Origin: Escherichia coli O157 typing phage 9
Length of the DNA stretch: 43,991 bases
Sequence record: KP869107
Strand: one strand, 5' to 3'
The notes under the pieces: generated by a model
What the model was told of the DNA's origin: nothing
Seen by the model: only the letters and a program-made list of their open reading frames with translations
Database searches by the model: none
Part shown: one piece after another, positions 1-43,991 of the stretch
Numbering within the stretch: the first letter of the stretch is position 1
Layout of the letters: every line of letters starts with the position of its first letter
Program-made: the position numbers and the translations under genes

Positions 1-270
1 ACAAATTTGCCTAATTGCCCTGGCCCACCAAGAGGAACAAAGTTATTCATCACGGCGTTGTTTGCGCCGGGGTCATGATGCACAGAATCCCCGTTTTTTG
101 TCCTGCTCTCCCTCTCTTGGTTAAATGACTGGTTATATGACTGGTTCTGGATCCCGTTTTTGGGATCATTCAACATCCCGTTTTTGGGATCATTCAACAT
201 CCCGTTTTTGGGTATATTCCCGTTTTCGGTAACATTACCGTTTTCGGGTTCATTGACCCCCTCTCGGTTG
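1..270. repeat. Direct repeat, copy 1 (matches 39093-39374 except one 12-bp unit)
   Basis: Read directly: acaaatttgcctaattgccctggcc... recurs at 39093; copy 1 has 2 units of atgactggtt(a/c)t, copy 2 has 3. Confidence 0.95.
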
Positions 271-2198: not shown

Positions 2199-2498
2199 AT
2201 GAACGTTAATCAGCAGAAAAATCTTCAAAAAATCATGCTGGCATTCGACAAGGACTACCGCCTGTCAGAACAGCTATATGACCGACAAGTTGAACTGATT
2301 GAGAGCATCCGACTTCATCAACTGTCCTCAACTTTTGACGTTGTAACAGGCAAAGGCGTTCGTCAGGAAGTACTGGAGGCTGCTAAAGACAGCCCTGAGT
2401 TCGAAGAACTGATGGATGCCTATCGGCGAGAGGCAATGGCAATTATCGCCCGCTGGGATCTGGCGGATCAGCTTGATGGACAGAGGGACGCGGCATGA
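2199..2498 (+). CDS. Hypothetical protein (99 aa), translationally coupled to the downstream recombinase
   Basis: ATG at 2199 with GGGAGG RBS; stop overlaps the ATG of the next gene (ATGA). Confidence 0.45.
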   Translation: MNVNQQKNLQKIMLAFDKDYRLSEQLYDRQVELIESIRLHQLSSTFDVVTGKGVRQEVLEAAKDSPEFEELMDAYRREAMAIIARWDLADQLDGQRDAA

Positions 2499-4255
2499 AA
2501 CCGGGAATTTATTTCGACATCAGCAACGAAGACTACCACGCCGGTGACGGCGTGAGTAAGTCGCAACTGGACATGGTTGCCAAGAATCCGTCGCTTCTTA
2601 AATGGGTCCAGGCAGCACCAGAAGACGAAGAGAAAAAGTCTGCACTGGATATTGGAACCGCATTGCACTGTCTGCTTCTGGAGCCTGGAGAATTCGACAA
2701 ACGCTTCATTGTTTCACCGAAGTTCGATCGTCGGACGAAACAAGGTAAAGCTGACGAAGAAGCATTTCTTCGTGATGTAGCGGATATGGGGATTACGGTA
2801 CTTGATGCCGAGCAGTGGCGGAAACTGGAGCTGATGCGTGATAGCGCAATGGCTCACCCGGCGGCACGCTGGATGCTGGAAGCACCTGGTTTCTGCGAAG
2901 CATCAATGTACTGGAATGATGAAGATACTGGTGAGTTGTGCCGCATTCGTCCAGACAAATGGCTGAACGAGCACAACGTGATCGTCGACGTGAAAAAGGT
3001 TGCAGATATGGACCGTTTTGCACGCCACATCGAGGAATTCCGCTACCACGTGCAGGACGCAATGTACCGCGAAGGCGCAATGAGGGTTACTGGTCAGCCG
3101 CATGGTTTTTTCTTTCTTGCCGTGAGCGAAAGCATTGATTGTGGTCGGTATCCGGTACGCGTGTTCGAGCTGGATGCGCCGGATGTCGATGCCGGGCACG
3201 CTCTGTTCCGCCGGGATCTGAATACCTATCACGAATGCCGCATAAATGATGAATGGGGCGGTGTGGAAATCATTAAACGCCCTGAGTGGGCACGCAAAAC
3301 AGGATATGTACATATGAGCAACGACATCGCAAACATCAACGCACCAGTAGACACAGCAATCGCTGGAACTGCTGCAACTATTTTCAGCCCAGACGGCTTG
3401 AACCAACTGATGAAATTCGCCGAGGTAATGGCGCAAAGCCGCGTAACGGTACCGGCGCACCTCGCCGGGAAACCAGCTGATTGCATGGCCGTGGCAATGC
3501 AGGCTGCGCAGTGGGGAATGAACCCGTTTGCCGTGGCTCAGAAAACCCATGTTGTGAACGGCACGCTAGGTTATGAAGCCCAATTAGTAAACGCAGTTAT
3601 CTCAACGATGTCGCCAACAAAAGATCGCATCAACTACGAGTGGTTCGGGCCGTGGGAACGCGTGATCGGTAAGTTTGTTGAGAAAACATCCAAAAACGGC
3701 AATCCATATATCGCACCAGGCTGGACTCTAAAAGACGAAGAAGGCTGCGGTGTTCGCGTATGGGCAACCATGAAGGGCGAGGATCAACCTCGAGTGCTTG
3801 AGTTAATGCTGTCTCAAGCACAGGTAAGAAACTCCACACTTTGGGCCAGTGATCCGAAACAACAACTCGCATACCTTGCGACAAAACGCTGGTCTCGCTT
3901 GCACTGTCCTGACGTAATCATGGGCGTCTACACACCAGACGAATTACAGGAAACGGCACCGCGCGTTGAGCGAGACATTACTCCGCAAACGACCACTGCT
4001 GCGGGAATGAACAGTCTGATCAACGCTAAACCAGTGAAAAAGCCTGATGAGCAAACTCGTAAAGCGGATAGCCGTGATCCAGAAGAAATGCTGATGGCCT
4101 TTACCAGCGCAGCGATGAATTACAGCACTGTCTCCGAACTGGATAAGGCTTACAAATACATTGCACAAAAACTTTCAGATGATGACGAACTGCTGGCAAA
4201 AGCCACCGACGTTTACAGCGTTCGTCGGGAAGAATTAAACGAAACATCTATGTAA
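2495..4255 (+). CDS. Recombination protein: N-terminal PD-(D/E)XK exonuclease domain fused to a C-terminal RecT/Bet-family annealase domain
   Basis: 586 aa; N-term DIGTALHCLLLEPGEFDKRFIVSPKFDRRTKQGK (PD-(D/E)XK / exonuclease VIII-like signature); C-term MAVAMQAAQWGMNPFAVAQKTHVVNGTLGYEAQ (RecT/Bet-like); single uninterrupted ORF. Confidence 0.65.
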   Translation: MKPGIYFDISNEDYHAGDGVSKSQLDMVAKNPSLLKWVQAAPEDEEKKSALDIGTALHCLLLEPGEFDKRFIVSPKFDRRTKQGKADEEAFLRDVADMGITVLDAEQWRKLELMRDSAMAHPAARWMLEAPGFCEASMYWNDEDTGELCRIRPDKWLNEHNVIVDVKKVADMDRFARHIEEFRYHVQDAMYREGAMRVTGQPHGFFFLAVSESIDCGRYPVRVFELDAPDVDAGHALFRRDLNTYHECRINDEWGGVEIIKRPEWARKTGYVHMSNDIANINAPVDTAIAGTAATIFSPDGLNQLMKFAEVMAQSRVTVPAHLAGKPADCMAVAMQAAQWGMNPFAVAQKTHVVNGTLGYEAQLVNAVISTMSPTKDRINYEWFGPWERVIGKFVEKTSKNGNPYIAPGWTLKDEEGCGVRVWATMKGEDQPRVLELMLSQAQVRNSTLWASDPKQQLAYLATKRWSRLHCPDVIMGVYTPDELQETAPRVERDITPQTTTAAGMNSLINAKPVKKPDEQTRKADSRDPEEMLMAFTSAAMNYSTVSELDKAYKYIAQKLSDDDELLAKATDVYSVRREELNETSM

Positions 4256-8774: not shown

Positions 8775-9165
8775 CGTCTTTTCTCCCCGGAATTAACTCG
8801 CGTGGATTGTCAGAACGGTGATAGAGCCAGATGCCAATGCGCACTGCGACTATTGCTGACACGAATGCGCCAGCAGAGAAGACGATCCCTTTCTCGAAAG
8901 AGTCCTGAGTGATGGTAGGGATCAGGCTGGCAAAGCCGATAAGGATCGACGCTGTGGGTTTGTAGAAGAGAAGGCCGCAGAGGAAGCTGAGCAACGACAG
9001 GAGCACGCGGCGACGGATTGGATACTCAACTGCCGAGGTAACAAAGATTACCGCACCAGCCAGAGCACCAAGCGCAACTTCTGGCGGAACACCTGCAATT
9101 ACTGCAGCAAGAGACCCCATGCTAAGCCACTGATTTAATGACTCACTGGTTAGCCCTGCTGACAT
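8761..9165 (-). CDS. Holin-like membrane protein
   Basis: Multiple TM segments; ATG at 9165 with GGTGG RBS (track start 9174 is GTG); first gene of the lysis cassette. Confidence 0.45.
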   Translation of the reverse strand: MSAGLTSESLNQWLSMGSLAAVIAGVPPEVALGALAGAVIFVTSAVEYPIRRRVLLSLLSFLCGLLFYKPTASILIGFASLIPTITQDSFEKGIVFSAGAFVSAIVAVRIGIWLYHRSDNPRELIPGRKDDDNS

Positions 9166-9324
9166 AATTACCACCGTTTACTGTGCATAAAGAACCCCCT
9201 TAGTTGGTGAGTCCATTATACACAATAAACCATATATGGTTAAAATAACTTAGAATTGATCCTATCGAAATTACCCGATAGGTGATATTATTTATTGAAA
9301 TAATACAGCTTAACGTACCTGGTC

Positions 9325-10341
9325 ATGAAAGATAAGAATTTGAATATTGAGTTGATTAGAGTGGCTGCTTGCTTTTTGGTGGTTGTTCTTCATTCTGTAA
9401 TTATAGGTATGAATGAAACAGGCTCATCAGGATGGGATATATTAAATATAATAGAATCTTTTACCAGAATATCTGTACCGTTATTCATTATGATTTCTGG
9501 GGCTTTGCTTATTAAAGAAAGTACAAATATGAATTCGTCATTAAAACGAGCAAATCGGCTATTCATTATTCTACTTTTCTGGTCGGCGATATATTACTTA
9601 TATCGTTCACATGTAAATAGTTTCCCCATAGATGTGAAATCATTTTTTAATTTATTTTTTCGATCGCAGATATTCTATCATATGTGGTACTTATATGCAG
9701 CCATTGGATTCGTTATCATTATGCCATTACTTAGTAAATTCTATTTACACTCAAATAAAATAGATGTTGTAATTTTAGTATGGTTATGGATGCTTCTTTT
9801 ATTCTTTAGTTTATTAAATGTATATCTTGGATTGAATTTAAATATCAACAATCTATTTCAAGTTAGTATATTTTCCAGCCTTGCTGTGTACTTGCTTCTA
9901 GGGAAGATAATTTTAGATAATCAAGTTAACATGACAAACTCAACAAAAATAATGTTAACCATTATGCTGACTGCATGTACGTTTGCGACCGCTTTTATAA
10001 CAAAGAATATTTCTGTTTACAGGGGACCGGTAAACCAGATGTTTTATGATAACTCGTCTTTGTTTATTGCCATGTCTGCAATATGTTTTATGGTGTTCAT
10101 GATAAACACCCCTGTTAAAAACAAAACGATATTACACATAGTGAAATTTATTTCTCCCTGCACACTAGGGATTTATCTTGTCCATCCATTAATCATTGAC
10201 ATACTCAGGAGATTTTTGCTTGATAAATATTCGATCCATCCAGAGATGTTTATCGTTATTCCTCTTTCTTTTATCGTGTTCTTAATTTCATTAGCCATCG
10301 TAGTTTTTTTAAGAAAATTTGGGTTGTCACGTGTAATATGA
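9325..10341 (+). CDS. Acyltransferase-3 family membrane protein (putative O-antigen acetyltransferase, lysogenic conversion)
   Basis: 338 aa polytopic membrane protein; markedly AT-rich compared with flanking phage DNA; sits next to the tailspike as in serotype-converting phages. Confidence 0.7.
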   Translation: MKDKNLNIELIRVAACFLVVVLHSVIIGMNETGSSGWDILNIIESFTRISVPLFIMISGALLIKESTNMNSSLKRANRLFIILLFWSAIYYLYRSHVNSFPIDVKSFFNLFFRSQIFYHMWYLYAAIGFVIIMPLLSKFYLHSNKIDVVILVWLWMLLLFFSLLNVYLGLNLNINNLFQVSIFSSLAVYLLLGKIILDNQVNMTNSTKIMLTIMLTACTFATAFITKNISVYRGPVNQMFYDNSSLFIAMSAICFMVFMINTPVKNKTILHIVKFISPCTLGIYLVHPLIIDILRRFLLDKYSIHPEMFIVIPLSFIVFLISLAIVVFLRKFGLSRVI

Positions 10342-10353
10342 CAACCAACTATA

Positions 10354-12981
10354 TTAAATATTTCCGTTCAGCGTGCGGAATGAGTATTGTTTATCCAGGT
10401 CTACTGGGGTAAATAATCCGTACATTCTGCTCGCTGCGTAGTCTGACTCAGATGAGAAACCGCCAACATAAACATGCGAACCTGCCCCTTCACATGCAAT
10501 ATCACCTGCTAATGGTCCTGAAAATGCGGTGATAGAAGATGTTCCGCTGTTGAATATGCTATTAAATGCGGCGTGAAGATCTGGTTGTCTGTACGCCCGT
10601 CGTATACGCCTTCCGGTATTTATATCAATAATAGACCACCATAATCGGCCTGGAGCGAATCCCATCGCAAAATGATATACGCCTCCTGAAGCTAACGCTT
10701 GCTCCGTTGTCAGATCGCTTGTTAACGTTTGAGTTATACCATCACCGGATAATAATATTGCTATAGTCTGCACACCACTGGAGTTAACTATAAATTGCAT
10801 AACAGCAGAGTTTCCAGAGGGCGAATATCCACTCCCCAGAGTGAAAGCTGTCATAGTTGTTGCACCCGTAAATGACGGGATTAGAACAAGGCCGATTGTA
10901 CACCCATGTCTCGATACTTTATCAGAAAATAATAACTTATCCTTGTTTGATTGCGTTAACTTAAGCATGTTTCCTTGCCCTAGTATCGAAGGAGCGCTTA
11001 CATATGTTGCGGTTGTAACGACTCCGTCAAATGTAGGAATATTGTTTTTTACGCTTCCTGTATATGTATAATAGTTTTTTAGGCCATTTATTATTAAATC
11101 ACCAGAATATGGCTGAATAAGATTATTGTCACCCATGAGTCGTTCGCTGTTTACTTCTGACTCGTAAATACCATTTATCAATACGGTACTATCGGAACCA
11201 ATACACCTCACATTTCCGGCTTGTGAATTTAGATCATATAGCGATGTAGCAGCATAGTTACGGCAAACATAACCATCTACAGTTACTATACTGTTTTCAA
11301 AAACCATATTATGGTATGACAGATTTGATGATGCACTATTTCTGTTAGTATTCAACCCACTGATAGCAACAGTTGAATTTTTAATATACAATCCATCGTA
11401 TGCACAGTCCTGTAACTCAACTCCTGTCATGTTTACATTTTGTGAATTAGAAATACGTAATCCTGAATATGGTGTTTCATTTTCTGAACCAGCCCAAATT
11501 AATTTGGCACCTATAATTCTGCAATTACCAGCACCATCAAGCACTAAGCATTCCTGCCCACACGTATCAATTTGAAGGTTTGTCCATGTAAAATCGGTAG
11601 TTCCGATCTTAGCCCCGGTTTTTTTAATGTTTCTTATGAATAATCCATGCGTTGAGACGGAAAAATTCGTTTCAGGATAATCAAATCCTAACTCGTCAAA
11701 TCCTGTAATGTGAACATTGCTAATGTAAAGATCCCTACGAACGTCAGGGGCGGTATTGAATGGATAGCTTGGTGCCCCACCTGGGTTTCCTGTCTCCATC
11801 GTTACCCCGCTTGTTCCCGCAGTTATTCCATCCCCATACAGGCCACAATCGGACAAATAAATCAGGCTGCAATCCTGAGTAATTGTCAGTAACGCGCCTG
11901 TTGCCCCAGATATTTGCTCTATCCTGGAAACGTGTAGACCAGACCCAGATAGTGAACACGACTTGTTATTTAGCTCAAGATTAGATGCTTTCCAGACATT
12001 TGTGCCAAGCTCAGCCGCCCTGCCACATTCAAGCATCTTTTGCAGTGCTGCTGTATCATCAGCCACGCCAGTGGCCCCAAACATAAACGGATTAACCTTA
12101 TCTGCATTAACCCGTAACCATACAGAACCACCTGCTGTTTTTATTACAACACCATCATCATCGGTATAGCCAGTTCCATCAAGTACAGCTCTGAATACCC
12201 CTCCACCAAGCCCAGTTCCGATCGTATGCTGTCGCAACGTGATCCTTTGACCATTTTTTTCAGGTTCTATTGTTCTTAGTGTCAATATATCAGGGCACTG
12301 ACCAATAAACTTAAATCCATCATTTGCCGCTAACTGGATCATTACATCAGTAGCCGAACCAGATTCAGGCAAAACCATTATCGGATTTCCAGTATCATCC
12401 ATTGCAACAATCTTATTCTTACGTTGCTCAATTCCCGGCAATGCTGGTATCGGCTCAGGGGTTCGTAGCGTTCTGCTCAGGTTTGTTTCTGCGACCCCAT
12501 CAACATATTTTTTTGTAGCCGCATCCTGCGGTCTTACAGGGTCACGAAGGTTACGAATATAGTTGTCCATTGCGTCGTAATAGTTAGCAACAAATGACGG
12601 CTTACGTAGCGCCAGACTAAACCAACTACGAACCTGCTGAATCAACATTGTCAGCTTATCAAACGCATCCTCATGCACCTCAGCAAAGAACTTCCCCTGG
12701 TTACGGAGATCTGTTTCCTGCGTAACCGACAGTTCACGTGATATGGAAATCTGGTAACCATTAGCCAGAGCTGTTGCAAGTATTACATTACCACCTTCAT
12801 ATCCCCCTGCGCCGGTTACTGTGTAGTCAGTATCCAGCGTCAGAACAGTGATGTTATCGTTCAGGTCAACAACCTGTACTACCAGATCAGATTCCTTGAA
12901 AACCCTAAAGGTATACGGAAATGATGTCGTAACACCGTTACCGGTGTATTCGTTGTGGTTAACTTCGGTTGAGACCGTCAT
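10354..12981 (-). CDS. Tailspike/tail fibre protein (T7 gp17-like N-terminal anchor plus beta-helix-like C-terminal domain)
   Basis: 875 aa; N-term EYTGNGVTTSFPYTFRVF...LDTDYTV anchor domain; long Gly/Asn/Ser-rich C-terminal region. Confidence 0.8.
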   Translation of the reverse strand: MTVSTEVNHNEYTGNGVTTSFPYTFRVFKESDLVVQVVDLNDNITVLTLDTDYTVTGAGGYEGGNVILATALANGYQISISRELSVTQETDLRNQGKFFAEVHEDAFDKLTMLIQQVRSWFSLALRKPSFVANYYDAMDNYIRNLRDPVRPQDAATKKYVDGVAETNLSRTLRTPEPIPALPGIEQRKNKIVAMDDTGNPIMVLPESGSATDVMIQLAANDGFKFIGQCPDILTLRTIEPEKNGQRITLRQHTIGTGLGGGVFRAVLDGTGYTDDDGVVIKTAGGSVWLRVNADKVNPFMFGATGVADDTAALQKMLECGRAAELGTNVWKASNLELNNKSCSLSGSGLHVSRIEQISGATGALLTITQDCSLIYLSDCGLYGDGITAGTSGVTMETGNPGGAPSYPFNTAPDVRRDLYISNVHITGFDELGFDYPETNFSVSTHGLFIRNIKKTGAKIGTTDFTWTNLQIDTCGQECLVLDGAGNCRIIGAKLIWAGSENETPYSGLRISNSQNVNMTGVELQDCAYDGLYIKNSTVAISGLNTNRNSASSNLSYHNMVFENSIVTVDGYVCRNYAATSLYDLNSQAGNVRCIGSDSTVLINGIYESEVNSERLMGDNNLIQPYSGDLIINGLKNYYTYTGSVKNNIPTFDGVVTTATYVSAPSILGQGNMLKLTQSNKDKLLFSDKVSRHGCTIGLVLIPSFTGATTMTAFTLGSGYSPSGNSAVMQFIVNSSGVQTIAILLSGDGITQTLTSDLTTEQALASGGVYHFAMGFAPGRLWWSIIDINTGRRIRRAYRQPDLHAAFNSIFNSGTSSITAFSGPLAGDIACEGAGSHVYVGGFSSESDYAASRMYGLFTPVDLDKQYSFRTLNGNI

Positions 12982-38849: not shown

Positions 38850-39374
38850 GCTTCAGGGCTGTTCCAGTGCGGAACGTTGTTATCAGGTAATGTTGATTGC
38901 TTCTGTCTGCTAATCTGCAGCCGCCTTGCCAGCTTCTGCTCCCACTGTGCCTGATGGTATGCCTTACCCTCAGCCATCCAGTAAATTCTGAACTCTGCAA
39001 GTTCCTGTGCCGTTGGCAGACTGTCCAGGTAGATCCCCTGCAATGAGCTTTTCCGAAGAAAGTCATCTGATGGCTGCCATTGTTCATGCATGACAAATTT
39101 GCCTAATTGCCCTGGCCCACCAAGAGGAACAAAGTTATTCATCACGGCGTTGTTTGCGCCGGGGTCATGATGCACAGAATCCCCGTTTTTTGTCCTGCTC
39201 TCCCTCTCTTGGTTAAATGACTGGTTATATGACTGGTTATATGACTGGTTCTGGATCCCGTTTTTGGGATCATTCAACATCCCGTTTTTGGGATCATTCA
39301 ACATCCCGTTTTTGGGTATATTCCCGTTTTCGGTAACATTACCGTTTTCGGGTTCATTGACCCCCTCTCGGTTG
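38831..39374 (-). CDS. Replication initiator O-like, C-terminal part plus iteron-encoded linker; N-terminus lost in the N run
   Basis: Minus-strand frame open from the N run through the iterons (MLNDPKNG repeats, NQSY repeats) to a stop at 38831; overlaps the P-like start. Confidence 0.6.
39093..39374. repeat. Direct repeat, copy 2 (truncated by N run at 39375)
   Basis: Identical to 1-270 apart from an extra 12-bp tandem unit at 39229-39240. Confidence 0.95.
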
Positions 39375-39474
39375 NNNNNNNNNNNNNNNNNNNNNNNNNN
39401 NNNNNNNNNNNNNNNNNNNNNNNNNNNNNNNNNNNNNNNNNNNNNNNNNNNNNNNNNNNNNNNNNNNNNNNNNN
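39375..39474. other. Run of 100 N (unresolved or masked sequence) at the junction between the two phage modules
   Basis: Read directly. Confidence 1.
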
Positions 39475-40077
39475 CACGGCATTCATCGCATCAAGAACCG
39501 GTGATAAATCCTCACCACCATTACCTTCTGCCTGCTGTGCTGATTGCTGAACACGGGACTGGAGATAGTTATTTTTACGGATGAGCGAAGCCACCGCGTC
39601 ACCAATTTCCGGATACATCTCCCTGATACGGGCAATCTGCTCATCAGAAATTTTTTCGTTTTCCGGTAACGGTGTGGGCTTCATACCGGCCTGGTGGATC
39701 TGAGACGTCAGCAGTTCCACCCTGCGTTTTTCTTCAGCTATCTGCCCACGAAGAAGTGCGGCTTCCTGTTCGGCCCGTTGCTTACCGGAACGTTCAGCCT
39801 CAAGGACTTCATAGGGAATGACGTGTTTACCGTCGCGGGTGAGCACCCCCTTCGCTTCCGGCTCCTTCACGTCCTGCGTCTGCTCCACACTGGCATCCGG
39901 CGTCGGTGCCACATTGTTATCGCCCGTCTGAGTCTGTGCTTCCTCATCCGCATGTTTTTCCGTGGTATCTTCCGTCACGACGTCCTGTGCGTGACTGTCA
40001 ATATCCACATCCCCAAGTCCTTCCAGCATTTTTTCCAGTTGTTCCGGGGTTTCTTCACCCGTAAATTCAAAATCCAT
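39475..40077 (-). CDS. Putative scaffolding-like protein of a P22-type head module, 3' end lost in the N run
   Basis: Acidic N-terminus and coiled-coil-like middle; located downstream of the portal as the scaffold gene is in P22-like phages. Confidence 0.35.
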
Positions 40078-40186
40078 AAATAACTCCGCATGGTCTGTTT
40101 ATCGGACAGATCCGAATGGTTGAGTAAATAAGGCTTATCGCTGCCCCCGCGAATAAGCGCACCGCTCCCGGAACGCTTACCTCCGG

Positions 40187-40216
40187 AAACAAAAAACCCC
40201 GTACGATGACGGGGTT
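40187..40216 (-). terminator. Rho-independent terminator after the P22-type portal gene
   Basis: aacccc-gtacgatgac-ggggtt with T6 on the minus strand. Confidence 0.45.
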
Positions 40217-40235
40217 CAGTTGAAGCCAGAGTTTT

Positions 40236-42336
40236 CAGAGCGACATTTCATTCATCCGCTGTTGTAACGTATACAGCATCTGTTGCTGAAGAACGTCCTG
40301 CTCCTGTTCCATATTCTGTACGCCGGTAATGATTTCTGCCGTATGTGCCTGGTTAAGCGCATNNNNNNNNNNNNNNNNNNNNNNNNNNNNNNNNNNNNNN
40401 NNNNNNNNNNNNNNNNNNNNNNNNNNNNNNNNNNNNNNNNNNNNNNNNNNNNNNNNNNNNNNNNNNNNNNNNNNNNNNNNNNNNNNNNNNNNNNNNNNNN
40501 NNNNNNNNNNNNNNNNNNNNNNNNNNNNNNNNNNNCTGCCTGTTGTTGCTGAAGTGCCTGTTGTTGTGCCGCTACTTCCTGTTCTTCCGGCGTCATTTCA
40601 TCCGGTGATTTTGGCGTCCCCAGCGCAGCACGAATACGCTCAACAAACTCCTGTTTCTGCGGCACATCCAGAAGATTAACCCACAGGTCGAGCACAACAG
40701 CCTGCACCTGAGGCGGCAGCCCCTGAATAACCTCTGACATTCTCTGTGCAAGCTGTGCCTTAAACGCCGGTGTCTGCTGAACAGGCGCCAGCGCAATATG
40801 TGTATTTAACCTTGAAATATCATTGGTCAGTTCACCATTATCACCTTCAGCATTGAGGACAATGGTCTGGCGACGCTGGCGATCATCGCGATTAATCACC
40901 ACTGCATGATTACGGCGTTTTTTCAGGTCATCGAGAAGATAAGCCAGCAACAGTCTTCCCACCTGCTGGCAGGCAAACTGGTAGTTATCGTTGATTTCCG
41001 CAAGGGTTGTGGCCCCCTGCTCCACCAGGTTACTGATAGCCACGCCTGACGTCGCACCTGAATCCTGCCCGAGAAATGCGGAATACACTCCNNNNNNNNN
41101 NNNNNNNNNNNNNNNNNNNNNNNNNNNNNNNNNNNNNNNNNNNNNNNNNNNNNNNNNNNNNNNNNNNNNNNNNNNNNNNNNNNNNNNNNNNNNNNNNNNN
41201 NNNNNNNNNNNNNNNNNNNNNNNNNNNNNNCTGCATGACCTGAAACTGCTGGCTGGCAACCTGAAAATCCTGCTCAACCCGAAAAACATCTGCGACACTT
41301 TTCTGATTTTTTCGGACCGGATTCAGTTTAATAATGCCATCCGGACGTTCGATCTGCTCCATCAGGTCGTTGTCTGACAACTGGGTGGCATCCTCGTCCA
41401 TAATCACGCGTTTGGCCTGAAGCAACCAGGTCAGCTTGATACGACGAAAATTCACCTCATCCTGTGCCGGAATGGCGCGGGAAATTAGCCCGTATGGCTC
41501 CCCGGTTTTATCCTTTCGGTATCCCCAGAAAGGAACCAGCGGAAACATCCCCTGCGGAGCACTACAGGGGCGATCCACAATAAAGTGTGGCCCGACAAAC
41601 CAGGCTTCACGAATACGGCTTACCCGCCCGACTTTCACCTGAACCCGCCCGGATGCCACAGCTACCGCCTGCATCAGATTATTTTTATCAAAGGCCACCA
41701 CCCGTCCATTACTGAGTTCAATCACCGGAAGACGCTCGAATGTACGGTAATAAACCACCTGAAGCAGCACACGACGGCGTTCACGCTGAAGCCATTCGTT
41801 CTGCTGTCGATCCCATGACTGATACTCTTCCCATGCACTCATCAACGGACTGGGCTGGCCTTCAGTAACCGTGGTATCGACAAAACCACGCCAGTCATCA
41901 ATGGCATAATCGATAACCTGAGCCATTCCCGGGAATGTAGCTTTTGCCTCATCGGTATCCATCCAGCGGCGACGCATCAGCCATCGGCAGTCACTTAAAT
42001 CAGCCTCCCGGCTCAGCCAGTCCCAGAAAACCTCATTCCGGCTGACAGTAGACACCTTAAATTCAGGCCCGAACGGATCGCTGTTTCGTCTGACCTCCAC
42101 CCAACTGAGGCCCGCCTTGATTTGTTCCGCATAGGCATCAGAGCGGGCTTTATTCATATTGCCAAGGCGGCATGCATCGGCAAATTCAGCATTAATAGCT
42201 TCAGCCAGTTTTTCAGTTTCATCATCTGGCTCGTCTGACATCACCACCAGATCAGTCCGTGTTTTGGCCTCCATTCCCAGAACGCCATCGACGGTAGGCG
42301 CGATGAGGTTATGGATAGTCATCGGCTGACCGCGAT
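40236..42336 (-). CDS. Portal protein, P22-type, interrupted by N runs (5' end inside the N run at 42337-42558)
   Basis: Long portal-sized reading frame with a Gln-rich C-terminal helical region (QEVAAQQQALQQQQA); true C-terminal frame ...QQRMNEMSL ends at 40236. Confidence 0.55.
40363..40535. other. Run of 173 N inside the portal gene
   Basis: Read directly. Confidence 1.
41092..41230. other. Run of 139 N inside the portal gene
   Basis: Read directly. Confidence 1.
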
Positions 42337-42558
42337 NNNNNNNNNNNNNNNNNNNNNNNNNNNNNNNNNNNNNNNNNNNNNNNNNNNNNNNNNNNNNNNN
42401 NNNNNNNNNNNNNNNNNNNNNNNNNNNNNNNNNNNNNNNNNNNNNNNNNNNNNNNNNNNNNNNNNNNNNNNNNNNNNNNNNNNNNNNNNNNNNNNNNNNN
42501 NNNNNNNNNNNNNNNNNNNNNNNNNNNNNNNNNNNNNNNNNNNNNNNNNNNNNNNNNN
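42337..42558. other. Run of 222 N spanning the terminase/portal gene junction
   Basis: Read directly. Confidence 1.
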
Positions 42559-43991
42559 GAGCCATCCAGTGTGTGGTTCTGCGTTTATCCGTTTTCTGTT
42601 TTACCCTCACCGGCATTCTGGCGCGCATCTCCTGGGCAATCATGTAGCTCATGAGCTGATCATCAAAGCAGCCTTCCTGTGCATTCATGGAGCCTTTCGC
42701 GTCATAAACGTAGGTGTTCATTTCCGATAATGTGCCTGACCAGCGGATCCCTGATATTCCATTATTCAGAAGCGTTTTCATTCCTTCGGTCAGAACAGGT
42801 TTGCTCTGACGGGTTGTCAGCCAGCCAAGGCGGGGCGTATCGTCGTCATATGCCTGGTCAAGATGCTGTTCGTTGTAGATATAACGTGTCGGATAGAGTT
42901 CCCGGAGTTTCAGGATAACTGCATGTCCGTGATTATTACGCTCCGGCCCCACAAACGCGTTGTTATACATACGACAGACCTGCGAAATGAGATGAGCAAA
43001 AAGTTCAGCATCGAGATGCCCGAACCAGTGAGCCACCTGCTCGCCATTACTGCGTTTGACAACATCCAGCGATGAGCGGTCTCCGTGCTCCAGCCCTTCG
43101 GCAGTATCTGCCCCANNNNNNNNNNNNNNNNNNNNNNNNNNNNNNNNNNNNNNNNNNNNNNNNNNNNNNNNNNNNNNNNNNNNNNNNNNNNNNNNNNNNN
43201 NNNNNNNNNNNNNNNNNNNNNNNNNNNNNNNNNNNNNNNNNNNNNNNNNNNNNNNNNNNNNNNNNNNNNNNNNNNNNNNNNNNNNNNNNNNNNNNNNNNN
43301 NNNNNNNNNNNNNNNNNNNNNNNNNNNNNNNNNNNNNNNNNNNNNNNNNNNNNNNNNTGTTCATCAGTAAGCGTGATGTTCATTGCCTTCTCAACCGCAG
43401 AAAAATACGTCATTTTTTCCCGTGACAGCTTCAGCCCGCTTTCCGGCACTCTGGCGCTGTATTTAGGATCCTGCCACCAGGCGTAAAAATGGAATTTATA
43501 ATCCTGTGCCGTCAGCAATAAGCCTGATGCAGTGATCTCCTGTGCTCGGTTACTCATCTCGTAAAAATCACCACCCACGCCTTCAGCAGTGGACTCATCA
43601 AAAATAATGCATTCATCAGAGACGGCATTAAGCGTACCGGTTCGCAGTTCTTTCGCCTTAGCCGGATATTTCGCGCAAATTTTGCCGTGCTCTGAGATAT
43701 GCAGGCGCTGCACCGTACCTGAACGGAATGAGGTTGCCACCTGGATACTCGAGCCGTGACCAAACAGGATATAGCCACCGCTGGCACCGCTACGACGTTC
43801 AACGATGGTGAATGAGGCTCTCAGCCAGTCAGGGAGATGATCAAACGGTACAGCAATTTTTGTGCGGAAAATTTCACTGGCAGCCTGTTTATCCTGAGCG
43901 ACGATCCCGCATTTGAGATGCGGAATGAATAATGCCTGGTCGAGAAGATAAATATCAATGGCTGTGGAAAATCCCAGCTGGCGCGCTTTCA
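42559..43991 (-). CDS. Terminase large subunit, P22-type; N-terminus beyond the window end, interrupted by an N run
   Basis: Minus-strand frame from the window end: ...ILFGHGSSIQVATSFRSGTVQRLHISEHGKICAKYPAKAKELRTGTLNAVSDECIIFDESTAEG...; after the gap ...VAHWFGHLDAELF...DDQLMSYMIAQEMRARMP (nuclease-domain-like). Confidence 0.55.
43116..43357. other. Run of 242 N inside the terminase gene
   Basis: Read directly. Confidence 1.

Follow-up and report, generated by a model that had tools for sequence, protein, structure and literature searches.

A one-base insertion places a RecE-type nuclease gene and recT in a single reading frame in the phiV10 lineage of Escherichia coli O157 typing phages

The stretch of DNA analysed here (the window) comprises 43,991 nucleotides of Escherichia coli O157 typing phage 9 (sequence record KP869107). 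On its plus strand, an open reading frame (ORF) of 586 codons runs without interruption from ATG to TGA and encodes a RecE/exonuclease VIII-type nuclease followed by a complete RecT. The fused ORF and a small ORF directly upstream of it (2184–2498; 99 residues from the start annotated in phiV10) are members of a tightly packed early operon. The neighbourhood contains a repressor, an AlpA-like regulator, a methylase and an integrase, as in phage phiV10. The features of the locus are as follows.

2495–2498, plus strand: ATGA overlap of the upstream small-ORF stop and the fused-ORF start (ORF list; phiV10 annotation PhiV10p38/p37).
2495–4255, plus strand: fused ORF, corresponding to phiV10 gene 37 'recET' (ORF list, DNA identity and exact-protein look-up).
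2495–3298, plus strand: RecE/exonuclease VIII-type PD-(D/E)XK nuclease domain, residues 1–268 (Pfam, PHROG, NCBIfam, 3H4R, DNA and protein alignments).
2954–2995, plus strand: catalytic codons D154 (2954–2956), D165 (2987–2989) and K167 (2993–2995) (protein alignment and 3H4R).
3296–3299, plus strand: AAAA run with a one-base insertion, AAA in relatives (MAFFT and six-sequence junction alignments).
3299–3313, plus strand: five frameshifted codons (TGYVH) that join the nuclease to RecT and replace the native QDMYI-stop (translations).
3301–3304, plus strand: AGGA Shine-Dalgarno sequence of the RecT cistron, 9 nt 5′ of the RecT ATG and inside the fused ORF (sequence).
3314–4255, plus strand: complete RecT coding sequence of 313 residues, residues 274–586 of the fusion (Pfam RecT and DNA alignment).
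3315–3317, plus strand: TGA that ends the nuclease gene in relatives (ATGA overlap), out of frame here and located within ATG-AGC.

The nuclease half is recognized by profiles from three collections. Pfam PF12684 (DUF3799, RecE-type PDDEXK nuclease), a family that has been equated with RecE (PMC3424549), matches residues 21–254 (E = 6.9e-21; 75.5 bits against a cut-off of 26), and PHROG 412 ('exonuclease VIII') matches residues 1–269 of the fusion with 410 bits. The NCBIfam model of exodeoxyribonuclease VIII, NF007259, is matched by residues 1–268 at model positions 606–873 only, and the score of 303 bits does not reach the equivalog cut-off of 1269 bits. Judged from these alignments, the nuclease half is a short form that lacks an N-terminal region of ∼600 residues and is not a RecE equivalog. 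In the solved nuclease domain of Rac RecE (3H4R), chain residues 5–261 of 265 align to residues 12–268 of the fusion (E = 4.7e-76). The D154, D165, K167, Q187 and Y191 residues are invariant in an alignment of 11 family members with identities down to 42%, and the catalytic residues pair with RPD and DVK of RecE in 3H4R. The PD...(D/E)XK active site is intact, because these five residues are invariant across all 11 members.

The C-terminal half is matched by Pfam PF03837 (RecT) at residues 310–490 (E = 8.5e-44; 149.9 bits against a cut-off of 24), covering profile positions 2–188 of 198. No PDB relative of this half was found by sequence at an E value of 0.01 or better. Profile searches against Pfam, PHROG and NCBIfam returned no match to the lambda Exo family (YqaJ, PF09588) or to the Bet annealase. 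In the phage early operon, RecT is encoded directly 3′ of its partner exonuclease, and here it is fused to it. The original prediction, a single 586-residue ORF with a nuclease in the first ∼270 residues and a RecT in the C-terminal half, is confirmed by the Pfam, PHROG and NCBIfam matches and by 3H4R, with both Pfam domains lying far above their curated thresholds.

The relatives of the fused ORF span 1760 bases, compared with 1761 in the window. Their annotation shows two genes, a nuclease gene of 822 nt and a recT gene of 942 nt, with a four-base ATGA overlap. The window was aligned by MAFFT with phiV10, typing phage 10, the prophage of E. coli OkiPb01680 and phage Tyrion. The window and the OkiPb01680 prophage are 99.9% identical and differ by one SNP (2926) and one indel, the extra A in the run at 3296–3299 (CGC AAAA CAGG in the window and CGC AAA CAGG in the prophage). 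The SNP results in D144 in the fusion instead of a glutamate in relatives, and residues 1–268 are otherwise unchanged from the 273-residue nuclease. The nuclease of relatives ends with ...A R K Q D M Y I stop, and their RecT starts with M S N D I A N..., whereas the window is translated across the junction as ...A R K T G Y V H M S N D I A N... (junction peptide of the predicted fusion, …PEWARKTGYVHMSNDIANINAPVD…). The extra A therefore brings the nuclease into the frame of recT, five codons ahead of the recT start codon at 3314. The critical site, 3296–3316, lies inside the interval of 3250–3350 at which the domain junction had been correctly predicted.

The insertion leaves both coding sequences nearly untouched. 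In the nuclease, changes are confined to the five C-terminal residues, which belong to a tail that is variable in length and unconserved in the family alignment. The DNA of the RecT part shows zero differences from the stand-alone recT of an E. coli prophage (NZ_AP042506; WP_000063835.1). The RecT ribosome-binding site and ATG are retained, and the annotation of phage Tyrion assigns the same AGGA (locus 3806–3809) to the ribosome-binding site of RecT. An AAA-to-AAAA insertion in the last codons of a RecE-type 5′-3′ exonuclease gene would have fused the nuclease to full-length RecT. By parsimony among these sequences, the split state is taken to be ancestral. Because a single SNP in 1761 nt separates the fused from the split alleles, the fusion is attributed to one recent event, and it is very probably a lineage-specific one-base (+1) insertion that joined two normally separate genes.

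Programmed recoding offers another route to the same chain. Relatives would make some fusion by ribosomal frameshifting near the ATGA, and phiV10 would have hard-wired it. The required frame change is of the −1 type and falls just 5′ of the overlap, where recoding signals sometimes occur. However, the sequence of relatives at this place, CGC-AAA-CAG-GAT-ATG-TAC-ATA-TGA, contains no slippery heptamer of the X-XXY-YYZ form, and their A-run of three bases is too short for transcriptional slippage. Programmed frameshifting in relatives is rejected because a slippery site is absent, and this origin is scarcely credible.

The split state prevails in all collections examined. Uetakevirus phages and E. 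coli prophages next to guaA contain the same genes in the same order with the same neighbours, at DNA identities from 99.9% to 81%. Their split pair yields two polypeptides (273 residues and 293–313 residues) from genes with an ATGA stop/start overlap and AAA at the junction, in contrast to the single chain and AAAA of the window. Examples are the pair of NZ_AP042506 (WP_284881776.1 and WP_000063835.1) and gp36/gp35 of phage Tyrion, and the RecT of the split E. coli prophage pair is the same as the RecT part of the fusion at the protein level. In the phage collection, identical fused records are limited to phiV10 and typing phage 10, and the shorter form with two genes is found in YDC107_2, BP9, EC.W1-9, Tyrion, BUCT554, 65FD, PAT1, PAS61 and others. 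The junction of 230 fetched loci reads AAA, and all 230 contain a recT-frame stop 5–12 codons upstream of the ATG. Three fetched loci read AAAA, all of them phiV10 or typing phage 10. The premise that exonuclease and annealase are normally separate proteins holds for each of the 230 AAA loci, which carry two genes, and the comparison with homologous phages finds the domains in separate overlapping genes in all other sequences examined.

Searches with the junction itself gave the same picture. A 91-nt junction query matched 228 complete E. coli genomes, 227 at 95–99% identity and one at 90–95%, and the identical fused junction was found in none of the 228. The E. coli matches listed are 98.9% identical over 90 bases, one base short of the query. 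The exact fused-junction pattern occurs in one IMG/VR contig (phiV10; 39,104 bp) and was absent from 185,579 species genomes (one per species) and from the JGI/ENA metagenomes. The split-junction pattern occurs in at least 120 IMG/VR contigs, three species genomes (two Citrobacter and one Kluyvera) and 102 metagenome contigs. At the protein level, coverage of the fused query does not exceed 55% for any of the best 120 matches among 5.8 billion clustered proteins, and the best 150 of 1.84 billion representatives (at least 216 bits) include no genuine protein that extends across both halves. The sole junction-crossing match, a 187-residue protein (P0213), was considered as an independent fusion and rejected; it is assigned to an error-ridden assembly because its middle is an out-of-frame translation of the same DNA. 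A literature search for natural nuclease-annealase fusions, in which 'rece' also matches 'receptor', returned nothing relevant.

The fused protein is restricted to one group of phages. The DNA of the fused ORF is 100% identical to that of phiV10 (DQ126339.2/NC_007804.2) and E. coli O157 typing phage 10 (KP869108.1), and the exact protein is deposited as AAZ95926.1 and YP_512292.1 (phiV10), AKE46447.1 (typing phage 10) and AKE46396.1 (typing phage 9). The phiV10 gene 37 protein and the proteins of the two typing phages are identical in sequence, with no difference among them. The exact fused protein is found on three to four contigs, compared with 802 contigs for the identical stand-alone 313-residue RecT. 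The fusion itself is already known. In GenBank, the phiV10 product was annotated years ago as 'putative recET' with the note 'fusion of RecE (exodeoxyribonuclease VIII) and RecT (single-strand annealing protein) recombination proteins'. The new elements here are its cause, the insertion of a single A, and its uniqueness to the lineage of phiV10 and typing phages 9 and 10.

A change in homopolymer length is a classic type of sequencing error, and the fused state is seen only in records from a single phage lineage. Databases also contain spurious 'fusions' created by frameshifts at this locus, as P0213 illustrates. A miscalled extra A in a phage that truly has two genes was therefore weighed as an explanation. 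However, the same protein is encoded by assemblies from three laboratories (DQ126339.2, the MiSeq assembly of typing phage 9 and the GAII assembly of typing phage 10). Typing phage 9 was sequenced by MiSeq at TGAC, and typing phage 10 was sequenced by GAII at AHVLA; both were assembled de novo with Velvet, with no dependence on the older phiV10 record. Moreover, a four-base homopolymer is not an error-prone context for Illumina or Sanger chemistry. Because the three separately produced assemblies encode an identical 586-residue protein, an artefact is improbable, with only a slim chance of accounting for the extra A, which is probably a real and recent mutation and not a read error. The verdict rests on the assembled records; the raw-read project of typing phages 9 and 10 is PRJNA252693. 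PhiV10 is part of the same O157 typing-phage scheme, and the three records confirm the base call and do not represent independent events, because they belong to one typing-phage set and may derive from one ancestor stock. The expectation that the ORF is genuine and not an artefact accordingly stands as far as the base is concerned, but a frameshift, the single extra A, is its cause at the DNA level.

A selected, recurrent nuclease-annealase architecture would give the fusion a different standing, that of an evolved single-chain recombinase. PHROG 561 matches the fusion from end to end and resembles a fusion family at first glance. Its numbering, however, mirrors the phiV10 protein, with a stand-alone nuclease at profile positions 2–268 and a stand-alone RecT at positions 274–567, and PHROG 561 is dismissed as a fusion family on the basis of this mapping of the split proteins. 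Further fused members are absent from every collection searched, and no fused architecture was seen in diverged lineages by protein searches that cover matches scoring at least 216 bits. With 99.9% identity between the gene and split alleles, the fusion has had no time to adapt, and there is no sign of selection for the fused state. Recurrence is the defining feature of a family of single-chain recombinases; as recurrence was searched for and not found, such a family is not defined by this protein. The window, with its single ORF, also departs from the canonical two-component phage recombinase, which consists of separate polypeptides. An evolved single-chain recombinase is highly improbable, and the proposal of a compact one-protein recombineering system gives way to a one-base frameshift, in one laboratory phage lineage, in a module whose domains are separate in all other sequences examined.

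The mechanism established for Rac RecE/RecT begins at a dsDNA end, where a toroidal PD-(D/E)XK exonuclease removes the 5′ strand; the 3′ strand exposed in this way is covered by RecT and annealed to its complement. By homology to this system, the ancestral pair of the phiV10-type locus would be translationally coupled genes for an ordinary two-component recombinase of the RecET type. In the fused state, the phage is expected to make a 66-kDa nuclease-RecT chain. Free nuclease would not be made, and the nuclease would exist only in covalent linkage to RecT. Because the RecT ribosome-binding site and ATG are preserved, some free RecT may be produced; it would arise by internal initiation at 3314 from the AGGA-N9-ATG. 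This internal start would operate without the termination-reinitiation coupling at the ATGA and on a site crossed by elongating ribosomes. The lost coupling could lower the amount of free RecT.

The sequence of the chain allows for independent folding of its two parts. The first ∼17 positions of RecT are poorly conserved among homologues, as judged from the alignment consensus. In a mixed alignment (A2), the nuclease homologues are misplaced, with an apparent identity of 21–28% compared with ∼70% expected. Independent folding is plausible because the domains are complete and are joined by five new residues and the poorly conserved N-terminus of RecT. For the same reasons, the completeness of both domains and their connection via this N-terminal segment, we infer at least partial activity, and the chances that the chain keeps a partial or useful activity appear evenly balanced. 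The stricter proposal of a working single-polypeptide RecET, in which the 66-kDa chain, possibly with free RecT, resects dsDNA ends and anneals the product, is possible but unlikely. RecT and Red-beta normally act in large stoichiometric excess over the nuclease, and a fixed 1:1 ratio sits badly with the many RecT monomers that each resected end usually requires. A RecE-like toroidal tetramer of the chain would also have to form with four RecT domains attached.

Loss of function is a serious competitor to an active chain, with a probability somewhat short of even. The insertion would then be a tolerated lesion in a dispensable module of a phage that has served for decades as a laboratory typing reagent. 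The chain would have little or no activity; for instance, the attached RecT might prevent assembly of a RecE-type ring, or RecT might be unable to form filaments. The recET module is dispensable for laboratory growth and lysogeny of phiV10. In phiV10, kan-nluc was put in place of gene 37, which had been selected as a non-essential site; the ΔrecET::kan-nluc phage propagates and forms lysogens efficiently. Several hundred natural prophages and metagenome contigs lack the fused state, which fits counter-selection or extreme youth, and the stoichiometric excess of RecT also speaks for impairment. On the other side, the domains are complete with intact catalytic residues, the rewriting is confined to the unconserved five-residue tail, and free RecT remains possible from the preserved ribosome-binding site and ATG. 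Moreover, no secondary decay is visible, with one SNP in 1761 nt relative to the split alleles.

The insertion carries little biological weight: it is a one-base accident in one laboratory typing-phage lineage and affects a gene whose deletion has served to construct reporter phages. An active chain would provide a ready-made single-gene RecET for recombineering trials. A working single chain would also demonstrate, by a natural example, the principle of a one-gene recombineering tool, and it could be used to probe how far a covalent tether is tolerated in the hand-off from nuclease to annealase. For annotation, the PHROG 561 profile seems to bear the imprint of the aberrant phiV10-type sequence, and this influence likely explains the 'RecT protein' and 'RecET' labels on stand-alone nucleases of related phages, an annotation error that is useful to know.

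The fusion can be compared with engineered and natural recombination systems. The engineered EcRecET, EcRecTE and miniRecTE combinations deliberately unite RecE- and RecT-derived parts in one recruited construct for genome editing (PMC12825301). They indicate that combined constructs can be useful, but they are artificial, MCP/dCas9-recruited and tried in mammalian cells, and their 'miniRecE' consists of Rac RecE residues 121–222, which are not the nuclease domain (PMC12825301). Because a different RecE fragment is used and the recruitment is artificial, these constructs say little about the phiV10 chain. The lambda Red pair Exo/Bet follows the same two-component logic, with a 5′-3′ exonuclease and a single-strand annealing protein encoded adjacently in an early operon, but it uses another nuclease family (YqaJ/lambda Exo, PF09588) and another annealase family. 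Rac RecE/RecT differs from the fusion in that RecE and RecT are separate proteins, in contrast to the one chain of the window, and in that RecE contains 866 residues with a long N-terminal extension that is absent from the fusion. Nevertheless, the whole solved nuclease domain of Rac RecE aligns with the nuclease half of the fusion with conservation of the PD...DXK motif, and in both Rac and the phiV10-type locus, a RecT-family annealase is encoded immediately 3′ of the nuclease.

The PHROG 561 profile, which carries the name 'RecT-like ssDNA annealing protein', spans 633 positions, and its numbering parallels that of the phiV10 fusion protein (window 2495–4255). Profile comparison resolves it into two parts, with positions 2–268 matched by a stand-alone nuclease (141 bits) and positions 274–567 matched by a stand-alone RecT. 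The nuclease gene occupies the same coordinates in three fetched loci of related split-gene phages.

Nuclease gene loci in related phages
740–1561, locus L005 (OQ921333.1), nuclease gene
740–1561, locus L006 (MT580116.1), nuclease gene
740–1561, locus L007 (PP445227.1), nuclease gene

In the record annotation, the nuclease gene is labeled 'RecT protein' in phages PAS61 and EC.W1-9 and 'putative RecET' in phage 65FD. These labels probably arose because PHROG 561 mirrors the phiV10 fusion, and misannotation appears to be spreading from a single aberrant, fused sequence. A different name is found in phage TL-2011b, whose homologue of window 2495–4255 lies at JQ011317.1 3002–4701. A gene under the match to the recET locus is called 'enterohemolysin 1' in this GenBank entry, whereas the RefSeq copy of the region reads 'RecT-like ssDNA annealing protein' and 'exonuclease VIII'. 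The GenBank name looks like an inherited old misnomer.

P0213, a 187-residue database protein that represents a public protein cluster, seemingly joins a nuclease to RecT. Its residues ∼61–122 come from reading the same DNA in frame 3 (cf. window ORF 3286–3480). P0213 was rejected as a fusion given its out-of-frame middle. It is the product of a low-quality assembly in which frameshift errors compensate for one another, and it serves as a warning for the mining of 'fusions' in metagenome protein catalogues.

Within recET, comparison with the E. coli OkiPb01680 prophage (99.9% identity) shows just one substitution, at position 2926 (T in the window, G in the prophage). The substitution yields D144 in the window, in place of the glutamate found in both the OkiPb01680 prophage and phage Tyrion. 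In the family alignment, nuclease residue 144 is a non-invariant position.

The phage part of the record ends in a repeat of its own beginning. Window positions 1–270 recur at 39093–39374 with 95.7% identity and 12 gapped positions (270 and 282 nt, respectively), and the phiV10 record is likewise 12 nt longer over window 1–25000. The repeat reflects overlapping assembly of a genome that is circular or terminally redundant, and its copies are of unequal length. The listed ORF at 160–447 contains a short tandem peptide repeat (GSFNIPFL, two copies), in which the length difference between the end copies may be located.

Window 9001–12000 has a G+C content of 0.34–0.40, compared with ∼0.50 in the rest of the phage, and is probably a moron gained horizontally. 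phiV10 is known to carry an O-acetylase gene whose product modifies the O157 antigen, and in related records a gene within the first 25 kb is named as an O-antigen acetylase or inner-membrane acyltransferase.

The right end of the record (39375–43991) opens with an exact 100-N spacer, followed by ∼4.5 kb that contains four more N-runs. This segment matches Stx2-converting phages (933W, VT2-Sakai) at 100% identity over their portal and large-terminase region, and does not match phiV10. It was probably added onto the typing phage 9 record as a contig from the Stx prophage carried by the STEC strain used for propagation.
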